Position numbers and translations under genes: made by a program. From Escherichia phage vB_Eco_OMNI12: a stretch of DNA of 64,000 nucleotides. Positions 2,222 through 25,552 of the stretch are shown piece after piece (position 1 is the first letter of the stretch; each line of letters starts with the position of its first letter). The stretch lies in the sequence record OL362041.1; one strand, 5' to 3'. The notes beneath the pieces were generated by a model. It was given only the letters and a program-made list of their open reading frames with translations, searched no databases and was not told where the DNA came from.

Positions 2222-3226
2222 TTAACTTACCAATTCAATCCAAGCCGGACGAAGTACATCTTGTACCATTTTAACTAATTCCTTCTTAATCAAAGAAGGA
2301 TTATCCGCTTGAGCTAAAGTAATACCTTCACGAGAAGTTTCTTCCAAAATATCTTGAACAGTTAGTCCCATCACCTTTCCAAAATCCTTCGGACCAATTT
2401 CACCAATTTTAGAAATAACGTTATTTACTCGGTTCAGTGTAACGTAACAAGCTAAAATTCCAACCAATTTGTTATCAGCTTCTGACAGTTCAACTTTAGC
2501 TTTAATAGGCTTATCAGACTTTTTCTTTTCACTAAATTTAGAGTTCTTGCATTTGATAGCTACGCGATTGCCATTAGGCATCCAAGAAGGATAACAAGGT
2601 TTCAATACATATCCTTCAGCGGTAAATACTTCGCCTTTTACTTCAGCATTCCAAACGCATTTATTTGCATCAACTAATCCAGCATGGTCTACCGTAAAAT
2701 TATAATCCTGGACGACAGAATCTAAATCATTTGGCAATTTAATAAGTTCTTCAAATTTACCACGACCTAAAAGTGGAGCCATTTTAAATTTAAATGTATT
2801 ACAGAATGATTCCATCATATAATCATCGACATAAGTCACATCACCACTTTCGGTAGTAACAATAATGTCAAATACATAAAAATCTTTATCACCATAATCG
2901 ACATTCTTCTGAATGCCAGGTCCAGCGAATTCGCCAAAGACTTGATAAGATACAACCGCTGAAGTTTCCATAATATCTTGTACTGCTTTAATAGAATCAG
3001 CGTAATTCTTCAAAATAATTTCATACCCAAAGAAATCTTCAGCAGGAAGAATAGGACCAGTGCGTTTAGCGCAAGTTACTTTATCACGCTCAATAATCAA
3101 TGAGAAATTTGTGCCGTGAATCTTTTCACGAGCTACCCACTCCCCACCAGTCAATCCCAAGCTATAAAGTTTTTCAATAAATTTAGAGTTGTAATGATTT
3201 TCAAGACTGCTATACTTTTTAAACAT
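2222..3226 (-). CDS. rnlB: RNA ligase 2
   Basis: 334 aa; N-terminal nucleotidyltransferase motif KIHGTN; T4 Rnl2 size and position. Confidence 0.85.
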
Positions 3227-3235
3227 AATTAATCC

Positions 3236-3514
3236 TCAAAATGTAATTTCTAACCAATCACCATCACGCTGATCACTATTGACTTTAAAGCTAAATCCTT
3301 CTTTTCTCAGCCAATCACCAATTTCTTCAGTAATCAATTTATCGCGAGCAGTACAATAATAACTAAAATATGTTTTACCTTGTTCAGCTGCTTTATTAGC
3401 AAGTTCCGAAAAATCTTTAATAAAACACTCTAGCTTAAACTGTTTACTTTTAAGTGCTTTTTCGCGTAATCGATTAGCAAAAGATTCATTTTCATAAAGA
3501 TCATACTGTTCCAT
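3236..3514 (-). CDS. Hypothetical protein (T4 24.2 position)
   Basis: 92 aa ORF, tight packing with neighbours. Confidence 0.55.
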   Translation of the reverse strand: MEQYDLYENESFANRLREKALKSKQFKLECFIKDFSELANKAAEQGKTYFSYYCTARDKLITEEIGDWLRKEGFSFKVNSDQRDGDWLEITF

Positions 3515-16674: not shown

Positions 16675-18732
16675 CTACATCTTGAACTTTTTAGACATTC
16701 CGTTGATGTTAACCAAAGAAGCTAAGATTTGAGAAACTTCGTTTTCCTCTTCTTTTGATTCTTCTACAAGGAATTGATTAAATCCAGCCATTGGACGAAC
16801 TTCACCAGTTTCCATTAGATGGTCGCCATCATATACTGATTCTTCTAATTGTTCAGAAGGAGGAACGATTGTACCTTCGATTAGATACTTGTTATAAGCA
16901 GTTTCTTTCATAAAGTAAGTACTTACTTTATTAATCTTCAGTAAAATTCCACGTGGTAGAATAACTTCAGCTTCTGACGGAAATCCTGATAAATGACCCG
17001 GAACGATAACTTTGATTCGCTCAGCTCCTTTAATTACCATACCCACGCTAGTTTCAGCATCTTCATTAGCATATGTAGAATGACTACCCATATGCATCAA
17101 ATCTTCTGCATCAACGGAACCTTCTCCTTCACCAGAAAATACTGCGCCGGAATCATCTAGAGCCATATAGTTTTTACCATGCTCACCGAAGATATTTGGT
17201 TTAAGCGATGTGGATACGAAGTTCTTGAAATAGAACATTTTATTTTCAATGTTATGACGCAAAGTTTTAAAGGTAACTTCTTGTCCACGGTAAAGTGTAG
17301 TTCCTGGAGGAAGAACTGAACCTTTAGCGAATGCAGAATCAAGCGTCTCAATATGTTTAATAGCTCGTTCCATATATTCTTCACGGGTAGAATCTGGTTT
17401 ACCCAAAAGGAACGAGTTCATTTCAACATATGAATCTGCACAATAATCTTCAATTACATCAGATTCAGCTTGAGTTAATCCTTTTGGAGTTACTTCAGTG
17501 CTTGCGTATTCATATGCCTGAGCAGCAGATTCATTAATCAATTTATAAATGCCATTCATGACAAATTGAATAATAGCTGTCTTTTCATCTGGCGTAGCTT
17601 TAGAACCTTTAACCAAATCATTGATAATTTTCTTAATAACATCAAAGCTATTAGAAATATTAATATCAGCAAGATCGCTTAAAATTTTATCAGTCTTATA
17701 ATCAAAGAATTCTTTATTCTTTAAATATTCTTGAGAACCTTGATATGTTATATCGCTCTGTAACTTGATAGATGGATCACGTAAACGTGCATGGGCTAAT
17801 GCAATATGATTTCGGAAGCTTTCGAGTTCATAATCACTAGATTTAAAACGAGAAGCGCTTCTCATACCGCCTATAGCTCCTTTGCTGAAGTTTGAACCAA
17901 TTTGAATAACGCCAGAGTTCATTGGTCCTTCTGCTTTATACACCGGAACTTTAGATTCAAACTCTTGATATTTCTTAGCAGCGAAGCTATCACCCTGAAG
18001 TGAAGCATCAACAGTAGAATATTGAGCTTGTGCTGCTAATCGACGACTAATTTTAGTTTTCTGAATAACAGCTTGGTCCGTGCGCTTATCATTTTCTAAA
18101 GCAATAGAAGCAGCAACAGCAACAGCTTTAGGAACAGCATTACCTGTTTTAACATCTACATAAACATCACCAACCTTTGATTCAACTTTTGTGAATAACT
18201 CAGTTGAAATAGGAGGTACACCTGGAATGTCTTCTAAATTGGCATTTTTACGATAAACCATAATATATGCGTACTTTTTATCATAATCCCAGATTTCCTT
18301 TAAAAGAACATATCGACCTGCTCCTTTAGTACGTACTAAACGGTCAGCAATAACTTGCATTTGACGAGCAGCGCCATTTGTTTTACTCTTTAGTACGCGG
18401 AATAAGCATGCATCAATTTTATACTGTTTCATTGTTTGAAGAGCAGTATCAAAAACAGCGTTAATGACGCCAATTGGATTTCCACCCAAGTTTCTAAGTT
18501 TAACCAGTGATAATTTCTCGTTGACACCTATCATTACGATATGCATCATTTTATCGCCTGGCTTAACGTTTTTATTCGTATCACCACCAGAGGTGTATGT
18601 ACAAAATCTAAATCCAGGAAGCACGCTTTCTTCGCCGGCTTGAATAGCAAAAATTTGTGGTATTTTATGCTTAGGATTTAAGTTAACAACCGGCGCCGAA
18701 GCGCCGTCAAATAATTCTGTAATAAGTTCCAT
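16675..18732 (-). CDS. Alt-family ADP-ribosyltransferase, second paralog
   Basis: 685 aa; N-terminus MELITELFD like Alt; C-terminal LYRG...FVSTS...EAEVILP (R-S-ExE ART motifs). Confidence 0.8.
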   Translation of the reverse strand: MELITELFDGASAPVVNLNPKHKIPQIFAIQAGEESVLPGFRFCTYTSGGDTNKNVKPGDKMMHIVMIGVNEKLSLVKLRNLGGNPIGVINAVFDTALQTMKQYKIDACLFRVLKSKTNGAARQMQVIADRLVRTKGAGRYVLLKEIWDYDKKYAYIMVYRKNANLEDIPGVPPISTELFTKVESKVGDVYVDVKTGNAVPKAVAVAASIALENDKRTDQAVIQKTKISRRLAAQAQYSTVDASLQGDSFAAKKYQEFESKVPVYKAEGPMNSGVIQIGSNFSKGAIGGMRSASRFKSSDYELESFRNHIALAHARLRDPSIKLQSDITYQGSQEYLKNKEFFDYKTDKILSDLADINISNSFDVIKKIINDLVKGSKATPDEKTAIIQFVMNGIYKLINESAAQAYEYASTEVTPKGLTQAESDVIEDYCADSYVEMNSFLLGKPDSTREEYMERAIKHIETLDSAFAKGSVLPPGTTLYRGQEVTFKTLRHNIENKMFYFKNFVSTSLKPNIFGEHGKNYMALDDSGAVFSGEGEGSVDAEDLMHMGSHSTYANEDAETSVGMVIKGAERIKVIVPGHLSGFPSEAEVILPRGILLKINKVSTYFMKETAYNKYLIEGTIVPPSEQLEESVYDGDHLMETGEVRPMAGFNQFLVEESKEEENEVSQILASLVNINGMSKKFKM

Positions 18733-18735
18733 GAT

Positions 18736-20793
18736 TTATCCTTGAACGAACTTGTAAGGCATGTTTGCAATATCTATACAAGACGCAATAATTCCAAGAG
18801 ATGATTCTACTTTCTGTTTAACATTTGATGAAACAAATGATGCAAAATCAACTCTGTCTTCTATTTCAATATCACCTGTCATTGTAACTACTTCGCCGGT
18901 TTCCATTAGACGGTCACCGTCATAAATTACCGATTCGGTGAGTTCTTCTGTGGTCATAACTTCAGCTTGAATAAGCTTGTTGTTAGTTTTAACTGTTCCA
19001 TCATTGTAAGATGCATCGGTTATTTTATTAACTTTGACCATTAATCCACGTGGCAAAATGACTTCCATTTCATTTGAAGGTGCTAAACTTCCACCTGGTA
19101 AAACAACATTGACTTTATCAGCCCCAGTAATAACCCATCCAATTCCAACTAAATTATCGCTAGAATTTACTAGTCCTTCATCAGTTTTATCAATAGAAAC
19201 ACTTAAACGCTTTTCGTCTGGTAAAACACCCACAGATGAATCAGTCATCCAGGTACCAAAAATATTTGGATATAATGATGTTGACACAAAATTTCTAAAA
19301 TAAAAAACTCGATTTTTTACCAGTGCTTCATATATTGAAGGTAACATTCGTTGTGAACGATACAAAGTAATACCTTTTGGTAATCGTTCACCATTTTTAA
19401 AGGCAGAATCTAAATTATCAATAGCTTTTTCTATATCAGATGCTGTCAAAATACTTGTACGCTCATCTGGATTATATAATCCCAAAAGAGCGTTATTTAT
19501 GTCTACATATCCTGAACTTACGTATTCACGAATTCCGCGTTTTTGTGCCGGTGTGTATTTAGATGAATCTTTATTTTCGACTATAGGATGTAGTGACCAT
19601 CCAGCGGTAAGAGCATATCCACGCAATTCTCTTCGAATAATCTTTGTTTTTATTGCATTCCAAGAATTTTGTACTAACTCATTCGCAGCATCTTGATTTA
19701 AATGCGAATGCTTGTTAATGTTTCTTTCTAACCAAGCACCTTTATATTTTTCTAAAGTATCATCAACTATAGAAGCAATAGTTTCTAAAGTTTTTATTGA
19801 AGTAATAGATTCTTTTCGTAATCTTTCTAAAGCTTTATTTTTTATTTCTGCATTAACATCAGATTCTTTATCTTCAGGAATTATAGAAGCTTCTCTGAAT
19901 GCCATTCCAGCTGTAACACTACTAAGAGCATTCTCTAATGCAAATCCTGAAGTAGAAATAACAGTTAATTCATTAGCGTCAGAAATTAAAGGAGCGTCAG
20001 CAGGTTTATTTAATTCTGCTGCTGAAGCCTCAAATTTTTGAAACATCGGCGTTTCAAATCTAGAAGATTCCAATGATTGACTTTGCGCAATTGCTCTACG
20101 GGAAATTTTAACTTTAACGATTACAGCTTGGTCAGAACGTTTATCATTTTCTTGTGCAATAGATGCTGCAATTGCCTCATTTTTGGTTACTTGAACTCCG
20201 GTATCTTTATTGATATAAACATCACCGACCTTCGATTCAACTTTAGTAAAGAGCTCGGTACTAATTTCCGGAACTCCTGGAATGTCTTCTAGTGATACAT
20301 TTTTGCGATGTATAAGAATATATGCATACTTTTTATCATAATCCCAGAGTTCCTTAAGAAGGACGTATCTGCCACCTGAACGACTACGGATAAGTCTATC
20401 AGCAATAACTTGAATTTGTCGAGCTTGACCAGCGGTTTTAGACTTAAGAATACGAAGCATACAAGCATCAATTTTATACTGACGCATTGTTTGCATTGCA
20501 ACAGTAAAAACTGAATTGATATAATTAATTGGGCTTGGACCAAGACCTTTTAATTTAGCAATTGAACCTTTAGCAGTTAATGTAAAAGGAACAATATGCA
20601 TCATTTTATCGCCCATCTTTAAATCGCGATTAGTATCACCTCCAGATGTATAGGTACATAAACGAAAACCTGGTTGTTCAATTGCATCATCAACATGAAC
20701 TGAAAAAATTTGTGGTATTTTCTTCTTTGGATTTAAGTTTGTAATCGGAAGAGTAGTATCTTCGTCAAATAATTCTGTAATAAGTTCCATCAT
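18736..20793 (-). CDS. alt: Alt ADP-ribosyltransferase (virion-packaged, modifies host RNA polymerase)
   Basis: 685 aa; LYRS...FVSTS...EMEVILP motifs; position next to gene 30. Confidence 0.85.
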   Translation of the reverse strand: MMELITELFDEDTTLPITNLNPKKKIPQIFSVHVDDAIEQPGFRLCTYTSGGDTNRDLKMGDKMMHIVPFTLTAKGSIAKLKGLGPSPINYINSVFTVAMQTMRQYKIDACMLRILKSKTAGQARQIQVIADRLIRSRSGGRYVLLKELWDYDKKYAYILIHRKNVSLEDIPGVPEISTELFTKVESKVGDVYINKDTGVQVTKNEAIAASIAQENDKRSDQAVIVKVKISRRAIAQSQSLESSRFETPMFQKFEASAAELNKPADAPLISDANELTVISTSGFALENALSSVTAGMAFREASIIPEDKESDVNAEIKNKALERLRKESITSIKTLETIASIVDDTLEKYKGAWLERNINKHSHLNQDAANELVQNSWNAIKTKIIRRELRGYALTAGWSLHPIVENKDSSKYTPAQKRGIREYVSSGYVDINNALLGLYNPDERTSILTASDIEKAIDNLDSAFKNGERLPKGITLYRSQRMLPSIYEALVKNRVFYFRNFVSTSLYPNIFGTWMTDSSVGVLPDEKRLSVSIDKTDEGLVNSSDNLVGIGWVITGADKVNVVLPGGSLAPSNEMEVILPRGLMVKVNKITDASYNDGTVKTNNKLIQAEVMTTEELTESVIYDGDRLMETGEVVTMTGDIEIEDRVDFASFVSSNVKQKVESSLGIIASCIDIANMPYKFVQG

Positions 20794-20821: not shown

Positions 20822-20843
20822 AAATTAAAGGCCCGAAGGCCTT
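20822..20843 (-). terminator. Hairpin terminator upstream of alt
   Basis: AAAGGCC-TTCG-GGCCTTT on the - strand followed by a T-rich run. Confidence 0.45.
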
Positions 20844-21031
20844 TAGTAATCTAGTGGTAAGAGAGTACGATATATTTCAAACTTTGGTCCTTTTTCATAG
20901 GCATCAAATGTTTCTGTAAATTTATTATAAGCGTATGCATCTACAAATTCGAGAATGACTTGTGATACAGAAGTAGAAACATCTCCACCTTCTTTTTGAG
21001 CAATGACAATTGTTTCTAAGTAAGCTTTCAT
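20843..21031 (-). CDS. Hypothetical protein (62 aa)
   Basis: ORF between ligase and alt, overlapping the ligase stop. Confidence 0.45.
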   Translation of the reverse strand: MKAYLETIVIAQKEGGDVSTSVSQVILEFVDAYAYNKFTETFDAYEKGPKFEIYRTLLPLDY

Positions 21032-22491
21032 AAACCAGTTACCTCATGAAAATCACCAAATACATCCTCGAATGTATTAGCTTTAGTTTTATCTTCACGT
21101 AAACGAATCGCAATCGGAAGAAATAATTTAACGTAATCAGTGCGGCCATCAGATTTTAACCAACCGTTGCATTCGCACTCTAGAATTTTTCCAATATAAT
21201 AATTTTGGTTTTCCATAATGCGAGTACGGTCAAGTTCATGCGATTTTACACCGGCTTTATCTTTTAAGCCTGAACCAGCATTTACCTTAATTTTTCCACA
21301 CTCTGATTCAAGAATAAATCCACCCGCTTTAGTAGGGTCTTTACGGTGAGGATAAATTCCTACAATTTTTAAATCAACATCAATTACTTCTTTAAATTTA
21401 TAGAGATTTTTTGAACGAGCATTTTCCCACAATCCATCGGTATTTTTGAGAATAATACCTTCAAGACCTTGGTCAATATACTTTTTATAAATTACCTTAG
21501 CTTCATCTAGGTTATTTACTACCTGGTTTTCAATTAAAATTACTTTATCATAACCTGATGTCATTTGTTCTAGTTTAGAAAAACGTACATCATATTTCAA
21601 ACGAAATGCAGGAAGACCGTATATTTCTACCAACGGGACATAATCCCAGACCTGAAACTTCATGCATTGAGCTTCTTTTTCAGAAATGGTTCCCTTTAAA
21701 GATTTATTGGCGATGCCATTAGATGCAGTACGTGATTCAGCTACTTCGGCGAATTCTTTAGCTTTACTAATTTCAGGATAAGCATCAAAAAGAAAATCTA
21801 GGCCTTCTGGCTCCTTTTCAACTTGCTCATGGTATACCAATTCGCCATCAATTAACACACCTTCTGGATGAATCTGGCGGGCTTCAGCAGTCATTTTGAT
21901 TAACTCTTCCTTAAGAAGATCTAATCCTAGATATTCATTACCAGCTCGTGATAAAAGACGAACATCATCTAATTCATCACCTCTGACTTCAGCAAAACAC
22001 CGAGCTCCATCAGCTTTTAACTGGGCAAAGGCTGGAAATTTGATATTCTTACTAATGCCTTTTTCATCATAAGAACTTGCAAGCATTTGAGGTTGTTCAG
22101 GAATTAAACCTGGCCAAACTTTGTTTGCAATAGATACTGAAGCACCGCATTCAAGGTCTCGCATCATCACCCGACGCAAAACTTCAACATCATCTTTTTT
22201 ACCGTCAGTAATATATCCAGTTAATTCCTCAATTGCCGCATTTCCAGTCAATTTCCGAGTAGCTAACGTGAATTCAATGAAGTCAAGCATATCGGTAAGA
22301 GTCAACATTCCAAAACTCTGGGTAGCAATACCCGGTTTAGGCCATTTCTTGATATAATACTGTAACCCACGAGAATAAGTCAGACGATATACTCGTTTAA
22401 GCAATTCATTATCTTTATTCTTTTCAAGAATTGCTTGCTTCTGCTTAGTTGAACCAATAGATGCTATTTCGCTCAGAATTTTAAGAATCAT
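21028..22491 (-). CDS. gp30: ATP-dependent DNA ligase
   Basis: 487 aa; adenylation motif AQLKADGARC (KxDG). Confidence 0.95.
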   Translation of the reverse strand: MILKILSEIASIGSTKQKQAILEKNKDNELLKRVYRLTYSRGLQYYIKKWPKPGIATQSFGMLTLTDMLDFIEFTLATRKLTGNAAIEELTGYITDGKKDDVEVLRRVMMRDLECGASVSIANKVWPGLIPEQPQMLASSYDEKGISKNIKFPAFAQLKADGARCFAEVRGDELDDVRLLSRAGNEYLGLDLLKEELIKMTAEARQIHPEGVLIDGELVYHEQVEKEPEGLDFLFDAYPEISKAKEFAEVAESRTASNGIANKSLKGTISEKEAQCMKFQVWDYVPLVEIYGLPAFRLKYDVRFSKLEQMTSGYDKVILIENQVVNNLDEAKVIYKKYIDQGLEGIILKNTDGLWENARSKNLYKFKEVIDVDLKIVGIYPHRKDPTKAGGFILESECGKIKVNAGSGLKDKAGVKSHELDRTRIMENQNYYIGKILECECNGWLKSDGRTDYVKLFLPIAIRLREDKTKANTFEDVFGDFHEVTGL

Positions 22492-22757
22492 TGTTCATCC
22501 TTTAGAGTTTGGTTTACAGCTCTATTATAAATCAATTCATCATTAAGCTCAGTCAAAGACCTGTGGTACGTGGTTCTAACTTTATTTCCTTGCATCCAGT
22601 GCTTGACGTAAATGAAACCTTGCTCTACACATTTTTTAAAAATTCGTTCGTCTTTTTGAGCTCGGAATTCTGGATTGCATCTAAAAAATTGATTTACGTG
22701 ACCGTAATCACGTGTAGTATTACCTTCATTTTCATAAATAGTATGAACAACAAACAT
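22488..22757 (-). CDS. Hypothetical protein (30.1 position)
   Basis: 89 aa ORF. Confidence 0.55.
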   Translation of the reverse strand: MFVVHTIYENEGNTTRDYGHVNQFFRCNPEFRAQKDERIFKKCVEQGFIYVKHWMQGNKVRTTYHRSLTELNDELIYNRAVNQTLKDEQ

Positions 22758-23611
22758 TAGAATGCTCCTTGGAAAATATTATCACCACTACCACTAGTAA
22801 GTCTATTAAAATACCCTGCATCGCCAGGCTTAATATAACTCCATGTATGAAATGGATGCACATGATATGGATGTGTATAATATGGATGATATGGATTATA
22901 AGGATTAAATCCAGGAGTTCTCCAAGTAGTGTTCCAACGAAAAGAATCGTTTTTAATCATCTTTTCAATTACATCTTTTATAGCTTTTTCACTATCAAAA
23001 CTTTCTTTATTTTCCTTTGGTGAAAAAAGCTTATTTTCTACATCATTCCATGTATAAACTCGCTGTGCAGTTTTTGGAATACTGTCACGCTCCCCTCGAG
23101 CCATCCAATAAACTGGAACATTTAATATTTCACTCGCATGATCGCAGTGGTGAGCGAGATCGTCAATATAACAAATCACGTTATATTTCTCTTTTGCCTT
23201 TTTGAACAACTCTTCTTTTGAAGAATCATGACCACACATCATTACTTCTGAGAAGGCACCAGGAAAAAGAGCATTCAAATTAAATTGACGATTCAACAGA
23301 GCGTCAATAGAATCACCCAGCGCTGTAACAGCTACAAAATTATAATCTTCTTTTAATTTGTTAATTACACACAGGGCATCTTTATATGGAGACAAGTAAC
23401 GAATAAAATCTGAACGATTGTATTTTTCAATTAACTTGACGCCAAGTTCTTCATCACAATTAAAGAGTTTACCAGGAGAAATAAATTTCTCATCTTGGAT
23501 CATTTTTAAAATATGTTCTAACGGAAGATTATATTTCTGAGCAAAATAAGGAAGGCCTGATTGCCAGCTTAAACATACTCCATCAATATCAGTTAAAATA
23601 GTAGGCTTCAT
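22757..23611 (-). CDS. HAD-like hydrolase candidate with C-terminal Pro/Tyr/His-rich tail (30.2 position)
   Basis: N-terminal ILTDIDGV resembles HAD motif I; C-terminal NPYNPYHPYYTHPYHVHPFH low-complexity tail. Confidence 0.55.
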   Translation of the reverse strand: MKPTILTDIDGVCLSWQSGLPYFAQKYNLPLEHILKMIQDEKFISPGKLFNCDEELGVKLIEKYNRSDFIRYLSPYKDALCVINKLKEDYNFVAVTALGDSIDALLNRQFNLNALFPGAFSEVMMCGHDSSKEELFKKAKEKYNVICYIDDLAHHCDHASEILNVPVYWMARGERDSIPKTAQRVYTWNDVENKLFSPKENKESFDSEKAIKDVIEKMIKNDSFRWNTTWRTPGFNPYNPYHPYYTHPYHVHPFHTWSYIKPGDAGYFNRLTSGSGDNIFQGAF

Positions 23612-24072
23612 AGAGAGTCTCTTAATAGGTTTAACACATCAATAAATTCAGCTTCGGTTAATATTGTATCATCTTTTGTTAGACCACTAGCCATGCTGTG
23701 CTTCAAAACTTTTCCTTTCGAGGCGTGTAATGCATCACGAAAGCCCTTGTTTTGGATCGCTGCTTCAAAATATGCATTTGTGTATAATTCTTTCCATGCT
23801 GGGGAGTATCTTGAAAACGGAACTCCAAGCCAGAAGAGGGTCCCACGGTCCTGAGCTCTAGCATAAGACCTTCCAGCTTGTTGGGCGGCAAGCCCGGATA
23901 ACCCAAATATACGACGTTGTTGTTCAGCATTTTTCACCTTGCATCCTTGGAAGAATCCTTCAAGACCTCCGAATTGAATACCATCCATGACGAAAGGCCA
24001 TTGGGCGAAATTACTTAATGCACACGATGGCCATCTAAAATTGCTTCTAATCTCTAACTCAGACATTTTCAA
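23608..24072 (-). CDS. NADAR (YbiA-like) domain protein (30.3 position)
   Basis: 154 aa; LSNFAQWPF...DG...EGFFQGCK matches the NADAR signature. Confidence 0.7.
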   Translation of the reverse strand: MKMSELEIRSNFRWPSCALSNFAQWPFVMDGIQFGGLEGFFQGCKVKNAEQQRRIFGLSGLAAQQAGRSYARAQDRGTLFWLGVPFSRYSPAWKELYTNAYFEAAIQNKGFRDALHASKGKVLKHSMASGLTKDDTILTEAEFIDVLNLLRDSL

Positions 24073-24265
24073 TACTTATAATTTCAACATCAGCCCAATG
24101 ACCATAGCAAGGAAGACGAAATTCAACTGGCCAGTTAGGGTCCTTTTCTAATATAATAGACTTAACTTGTGGTTCTTCATGTTCATCAGTATATGGATTT
24201 TTATCTGTTACTTTATATGTGACCTTAATGTACTGAATTCCAAAAATCTTATTAATTATATTCAT
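24059..24265 (-). CDS. Hypothetical protein
   Basis: 68 aa ORF in early operon. Confidence 0.5.
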   Translation of the reverse strand: MNIINKIFGIQYIKVTYKVTDKNPYTDEHEEPQVKSIILEKDPNWPVEFRLPCYGHWADVEIISIENV

Positions 24266-25219: not shown

Positions 25220-25552
25220 TTATTTTACTACTTTCCAATGCTGCATGTCAAGTTTACCAACTTTTTTCATCTTCTCAATTAAGCGTTCGGCACGTTGGCG
25301 AGCTGTAACATAATACCATTCACCTAATTCATTTTGTTCAATTTTTCCAACGATTACTGTATTCAATTCATAAATCCAACCAGTAAAGAAATTATGAACT
25401 TGAATTGTAAAGGTGAAATCTGTTCCCATACCTTCTGTTGTTTCTACTTCAATAATATCACCTTCAACTGCCATTAAGAACCACATAGTTTCATCATATT
25501 TACCATTGAAGCATTTAGTTTTAACTGCAGCGTTCAGATTAATCGTTTTCAT
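25220..25552 (-). CDS. Hypothetical protein
   Basis: 110 aa ORF with GGAG upstream. Confidence 0.55.
   Translation of the reverse strand: MKTINLNAAVKTKCFNGKYDETMWFLMAVEGDIIEVETTEGMGTDFTFTIQVHNFFTGWIYELNTVIVGKIEQNELGEWYYVTARQRAERLIEKMKKVGKLDMQHWKVVK

Follow-up and report, generated by a model that had tools for sequence, protein, structure and literature searches.

The gene at 23608..24066 on the (-) strand of the window (the whole 64,000-nt stretch of Escherichia phage vB_Eco_OMNI12, OL362041.1, analysed here) is, as judged from sequence similarity and gene order, the ortholog of T4 gene 30.3 (adfN). We consider it very probable that it encodes a minimal, core-only NADAR-fold enzyme, made during infection, which removes the ADP-ribose attached by DarT1 from phage DNA. 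In the proposed mechanism, the host DarT1 of a DarTG1 system would move ADP-ribose from NAD+ to the guanine N2 in phage DNA and thereby block replication, and AdfN would cleave the guanine-ribose N-glycosidic bond, so that ADP-ribose would be released, unmodified DNA restored and phage replication resumed. Catalysis would be carried out by Glu36 and Lys43 on one helix together with His123 in the last strand. The fold, the enzymatic activity and the anti-DarTG1 role have already been published (2023-2025) for a 97%-identical protein, and the gene adds nothing new to biology. The positions that define it are as follows:

23608..24066, (-) strand: adfN (ortholog of T4 gene 30.3), predicted phage-type NADAR DNA ADP-ribosylglycohydrolase, 152 aa plus stop
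24067..24072, (-) strand: TTG AAA, the two codons by which the original prediction is longer, probably untranslated according to annotations, the homolog alignment and the 30.4 overlap
24059..24066, (-) strand: ATGTCTGA overlap of the 30.4 stop and the 30.3 start, read from the sequence
23608..23611, (-) strand: ATGA overlap of the 30.3 stop and the 30.2 start, read from the sequence

The original prediction placed the gene at 23608-24072, with a 154-aa product translated from TTG. The open reading frame and its (-) strand were confirmed, but translation probably begins at the ATG at 24066, which gives 152 aa. The same ATG is used in the T4 (459 nt), Bp7 and TU01 annotations of 30.3, and the homolog alignment begins at MSELEIRS, which corresponds to the ATG two codons 3' of the TTG. 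Based on these three annotations, the homolog alignment and the overlap with the 30.4 stop codon, the coding sequence of 30.3 is most likely 23608..24066 (152 aa). The ATGTCTGA overlap between 30.4 and 30.3 would possibly allow translational coupling of the two genes. An internal ORF in the +1 frame, 30.3' (75 aa, 23703..23930, (-) strand), is annotated in T4 within gene 30.3 and has its own PHROG family, which may merely reflect copied annotation. This frame is open in most relatives checked (here, Bp7, CJ20 and a 64%-identical metagenomic relative), with its Met conserved, and is broken by a stop codon in Mosigvirus TU01. In view of the interruption in TU01, we regard 30.3' as at most a candidate gene.

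To place the gene in its genomic context, we compared the surrounding region with related phages. The 1.6-kb stretch around 30.3 showed 99.4% identity to Escherichia phage GADU22 and 95-99% identity to several hundred other Tequatrovirus records, and by this similarity the window belongs to a T4-like phage, Tequatrovirus. When its coordinates are shifted to those of T4, the window should correspond to about 104.7-168.7 kb of T4, a range that we take to leave out tk.4, a T4 gene referred to below. The gene order around 30.3 agrees with the T4 map gene for gene, with the following features:

20826..20845, (-) strand: terminator-like hairpin after alt.1, an 8-pair stem followed by a T-run
20843..21031: alt.1
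21028..22491: DNA ligase gene 30
22488..22757: 30.1
22757..23611, (-) strand: 30.2 (gp30.2, 284 aa)
24059..24265: 30.4
Beyond 30.4, in order: 30.5, 30.6, 30.7, 30.8, rIII and 31
25222..25251, (-) strand: best sigma-70-like match upstream of 30.7, TTGACA-18-TAAAAT, 11/12 consensus

The reported proximity of 30.3 to the DNA ligase gene was thus borne out, with gene 30 lying two genes away. Bracketed by the promoter-like site and the hairpin, 30.3 is plausibly co-transcribed in a unit comprising 30.7...30.3-30.2-30.1-30-alt.1; a promoter and terminator scan of the region gave site counts no higher than in shuffled sequence. Acinetobacter phage Acj61 and the 64%-identical metagenomic relative share the order 30.3, 30.2, ligase and alt, and RB16 has it in part; in all three, small genes separate 30.3 from 30.2. 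Judged from these gene orders, the linkage of 30.3, ligase and alt is an old synteny of the Straboviridae. In the Enterobacter phage KKP_3262 (Karamvirus), the 30.3 homolog was found at 3001..3450 inside a large tRNA gene cluster, away from 30.2 and ligase, and 30.3 has therefore moved at least once within the Tevenvirinae.

Orthology with T4 30.3 was evident in the protein itself. The product matched the Pfam family PF08010 (Phage_30_3) with 230.1 bits against a cut-off of 36 (E 8.7e-69), over profile positions 1-138 of 138, and was 97% identical to T4 gp30.3/AdfN over all 152 aa. Both genes are flanked by 30.4 and 30.2 with the same overlapping stop and start codons, and both proteins share E36, K43, H123 and the C-terminal helix; the assignment was further backed by a gene order like that of Bp7 and the metagenomic relative. 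The OMNI12 allele differs from T4 AdfN by four substitutions (L39F, V47A, Q114H and I125M). Position 39 lies between E36 and K43, and in the profile alignment the Phe of the OMNI12 allele coincides with a Phe of YbiA, so that L39F is compatible with NADAR activity and is unlikely to harm the enzyme. We infer from the aligned sequences that the OMNI12 allele would be functionally equal to T4 AdfN, with no difference expected, and by analogy with the T4 protein it should be active against DarTG1 and hydrolyse guanine-ADP-ribose (G-ADPr).

The homology to NADAR enzymes was demonstrated through fold and profile comparison, since direct Pfam, NCBIfam and PADLOC searches gave no threshold match to them. 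The NADAR motifs quoted in the original prediction are present (LSNFAQWPF at aa 17-25, DG at aa 28-29 and EGFFQGCK at aa 36-43, in the 152-aa numbering). That prediction was to be abandoned if no significant NADAR profile hit was obtained; the Pfam search gave no PF08719 match at E ≤ 1 and reported PF08010 alone, and such a rule would therefore wrongly reject a true NADAR. A Pfam NADAR search used alone would thus give a false negative for the 30.3 protein. The NCBIfam riboflavin N-glycosidase model TIGR02464 scored 12.5 bits against a cut-off of 73.7 (E 0.13), and the 30.3 protein matched none of the PADLOC models. The description of the protein as closely resembling YbiA was overstated: in a phmmer search of the PDB with the single protein, YbiA was the sole match, at E 0.16 over 53 residues, which is too weak by itself, and structural alignment gave 18% identity. 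With an 8-sequence profile, YbiA was found in the PDB at E 0.0023, and hhalign reached 91% over 52 residues; hmmsearch against the PDB found it at E 0.0018; and hhalign of a 44-sequence family profile against E. coli YbiA gave a probability of 94.5% and E 7.6e-8 over 137 aligned columns. The AlphaFold2 model of the 30.3 protein, built from a 7-sequence alignment, had a pLDDT of 82.5 and a pTM of 0.80. Taken from these profile and model comparisons, the OMNI12 30.3 protein is a member of the NADAR superfamily.

The family alignment comprised 44 diverse single-domain members, all of which (44/44) matched PF08010, while 6/44 also cross-matched PF08719 below threshold. Five residues are invariant among the 44 members, namely N19, E36, H123, T137 and L145. 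The predicted catalytic residues and the C-terminal helix were located in the gene as follows:

23959..23961, (-) strand: GAA codon of predicted catalytic Glu36, invariant in the 44 members and aligned with the Glu of YbiA 'SEHYFQAQK'
23938..23940, (-) strand: AAG codon of predicted catalytic Lys43, in E-x6-K spacing and aligned with the Lys of YbiA 'SEHYFQAQK'
23698..23700, (-) strand: CAC codon of His123 in the last strand, a mark of phage NADARs, invariant in the 44 members and aligned with the Glu of YbiA 'LVEH'
23611..23655, (-) strand: last 15 codons (aa 138-152), the C-terminal helix (138-151 in the model), intact and identical to T4

The E-x6-K arrangement of E36 and K43 has the same spacing as E88 and K95 in the E. 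coli C7 NADAR. All NADARs have this Glu and Lys in common, and the types differ in a third residue of the last strand: YbiA-type proteins have Glu, those of the DarG1 type have Asp and phage NADARs have His (PMC11125620, PMC11543638, PMC12945103). The recognition of gp30.3 as a distinct phage NADAR subfamily with His is credited to an earlier bioinformatic superfamily study (PMC11125620, PMC11543638). An alternative reading would make 30.3 an N-glycosidase of the YbiA type, with small molecules (riboflavin-pathway intermediates or soluble immune signals derived from ADP-ribose) as substrates in place of DNA adducts. We regard this reading as very unlikely, given that TIGR02464 scored far below its cut-off, that the last-strand Glu defining YbiA is replaced by His, and that for T4 AdfN both the DarTG1 phenotype and the removal of ADP-ribose from DNA are directly established. 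Beside the predicted action on DNA, the 30.3 protein may have a side activity on soluble substrates.

The function of the T4 protein has been established by genetic and biochemical experiments. The DarTG1 resistance of T2 and T4 was mapped to gene 30.3 by means of recombinant phages, and the gene was renamed adfN, for anti-DarT factor NADAR (Johannesman et al., Nat Commun 2025, PMC11825919). Without adfN, T4 and T2 formed no plaques on DarTG1 hosts, and ectopic AdfN rescued RB69, whose own allele is 15 residues short; the RB69-type 15-residue C-terminal truncation, E36A and K43A each weakened T4 AdfN (PMC11825919). Purified T4 AdfN stripped ADP-ribose from DarT1-modified DNA, the E36A protein was inactive in vitro, and AdfN had no effect on DarTG2 (PMC11825919). 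T4 gp30.3 hydrolysed G-ADPr and not T-ADPr in vitro (PMC11125620), and removal of G-ADPr by the T4 NADAR was also reported elsewhere (PMC12945103). In a HIDEN-SEQ transposon screen described in a preprint, 30.3/adfN insertions were lost specifically on DarTG1 hosts and the gene was non-essential on E. coli K-12 (10.1101/2025.11.20.689424). Experiments on the T4 protein, which is 97% identical, have thus borne out the NADAR anti-defence function originally proposed for this gene; the target is specifically the product of DarT1 (guanine) and not of DarT2 (thymine). The screen report also describes a second T4 factor, the macrodomain anti-DarTG2 protein tk.4/AdfM (10.1101/2025.11.20.689424). As a further observation on the published work, the Toxins 2024 paper (PMC11125620) lists a construct named 'E. 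coli T4 phage NADAR (gp30.3; residues 1-208)', and the T4 record has 152 aa.

The activity of T4 AdfN depends on the context of infection. DarT1 toxicity in uninfected E. coli was not rescued by T4 AdfN, and T5 and Bas25 were barely helped (PMC11825919, PMC11125620). The DNA modification status was irrelevant to this restriction to T-even phages, and a T-even-specific factor or context has been suspected (PMC11825919, PMC11125620). The failure in uninfected cells indicates that glycohydrolase activity alone does not fully explain the function in vivo, and also that rescue of DarT toxicity, which had been suggested as a check on the prediction, would be negative even for a genuinely functional protein. 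One speculative reading of this restriction is that AdfN needs the help of another phage protein, encoded in the translationally coupled cluster to which 30.3 itself belongs, with gp30.2 and gp30.4 as candidates. From T4 to Acinetobacter phages, 30.2 stays downstream of 30.3, between 30.3 and ligase; however, several relatives carry further genes between 30.3 and 30.2, and the available part of the DarTG1 transposon screen names only adfN (10.1101/2025.11.20.689424). We consider a dedicated partner of this kind unlikely.

To assess the relation of 30.3 to the ADP-ribosyltransferase (ART) genes of the phage, we located these genes in the window. The original prediction noted two of them about 3 kb away; both are intact:

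18736..20793, (-) strand: T4 Alt ortholog, 98% identity, PF03496, 2.8 kb from 30.3
16675..18732, (-) strand: full-length Alt paralog, 41% identical to Alt, PF03496, 4.9 kb from 30.3

Both Alt-type proteins show R / STS / ExE motifs by eye. Residues 1-56 and 62-116 of the paralog at 16675..18732 have counterparts of 95-96% identity in the small T4 ORFs alt.-1 and alt.-2, respectively; T4 therefore appears to have kept mere fragments of a gene that OMNI12 carries in full. The neighbourhood had suggested that the phage carries both writers and an eraser of ADP-ribosylation, with 30.3 acting as the eraser for Alt and the Alt paralog. Both PF03496 genes have the same orientation as 30.3, the linkage of 30.3, ligase and alt persists in distant T4-like phages, and Iyer et al. 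2022 pointed out that the NADARs of T4-like phages are early genes near ARTs and noted their co-expression. Nevertheless, the annotated role of T4 Alt is that of an ADP-ribosylase carried in the virion whose target, the RNA polymerase alpha subunit, is a protein, whereas guanine-ADPr in DNA and RNA, but not thymine- or cytosine-ADPr, is the substrate demonstrated for the T4 NADAR (PMC11125620, PMC12945103). In the HIDEN-SEQ screen, moreover, 30.3/adfN was dispensable on E. coli K-12 and lost on DarTG1 hosts (10.1101/2025.11.20.689424), and in Karamvirus KKP_3262 the gene lies among tRNA genes, off the ligase/alt block. An internal pair of writer and eraser is therefore unsupported, and we judge it extremely unlikely; the removal of host-derived DarT1 modification from phage DNA is the preferred function of 30.3.

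To determine the distribution of the gene, we searched phage records and protein databases. A tblastn search detected the 30.3 protein in 1,511 of the 50,697 phage records, which were for the most part Straboviridae of Escherichia, Klebsiella, Shigella, Aeromonas, Acinetobacter or Vibrio, and among the matches listed it was annotated as 'hypothetical protein' in almost all records. When 1.84 billion representative proteins were searched with a profile, 991 clusters at 50% identity matched (E ≤ 0.001). The PF08010 family also includes multi-domain proteins, with tandem domain copies, GDSL lipase/acylhydrolase fusions and BspA-type leucine-rich repeat fusions, and several PF08010 proteins are 460-500 aa long and carry an unassigned N-terminal part of about 300 aa. 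The PHROG 652 profile has 296 positions, of which the 30.3 protein covers only 126-272, and longer family members therefore exist.

We also examined the neighbouring gp30.2. Motifs like those of HAD phosphatases were seen by eye (LTDIDGV near the N-terminus, VAVTAL and YIDD), and its C-terminal tail is rich in His, Pro and Tyr and 6 residues longer than in T4. The protein gave no Pfam match, and phmmer against the PDB gave a faint match to 5'(3')-deoxyribonucleotidase 2jao (E 1.5); in one GenBank record, a feature under the gp30.2 gene match is named 5'-3' deoxyribonucleotidase. The single-sequence AlphaFold model of gp30.2 had a pLDDT of 37.5 and was unusable.

The value of these results lies in annotation, and moving the adfN name onto the 'hypothetical protein' records would improve many of them. 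With its adfN intact (full length, with E36, K43 and H123), OMNI12 is predicted to resist DarTG1, unlike RB69-like phages with a truncated allele.

Compared with known NADAR systems, the 30.3 protein differs from DarG1, the NADAR antitoxin of DarTG1 (E. coli C7 and Geobacter lovleyi, PDB 8bat; Schuller et al., Mol Cell 2023, PMC11543638), to which it has 13% identity in structural alignment. It is an orphan gene without an adjacent darT1: Pfam scans of ten proteins around 30.3, including the direct neighbours 30.4 and 30.2, found no DarT domain. It carries His123 where DarG1 has Asp (D171 in the E. coli C7 NADAR) and consists of the core domain alone, without the N-terminal additions of DarG1 (PMC12945103), and in uninfected cells the T4 protein is unable to serve as the antitoxin in place of DarG1 (PMC11825919). 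We accordingly rejected 30.3 as a DarG1 antitoxin, given the lack of a neighbouring darT1 and the presence of His123 instead of Asp. [quoted passage not shown] In E. coli YbiA (PDB 2b3w; 18% identity), the last-strand residue is Glu, and the gene, annotated as coding for an N-glycosidase, neighbours dinG in an operon under LexA control. Cytosine-ADPr is a further substrate of YbiA-type NADARs, one for which phage NADARs are not listed (PMC12945103). AdfN-Bas32 and AdfN-Bas60, from T5-like and Vequintavirinae phages, are likewise phage-encoded, orphan, guanine-specific NADARs that counter DarTG1 (PMC11825919). They fall elsewhere in the NADAR tree and need no phage infection in order to act, whereas the T4-type protein is fully active only in T-even infection (PMC11825919).
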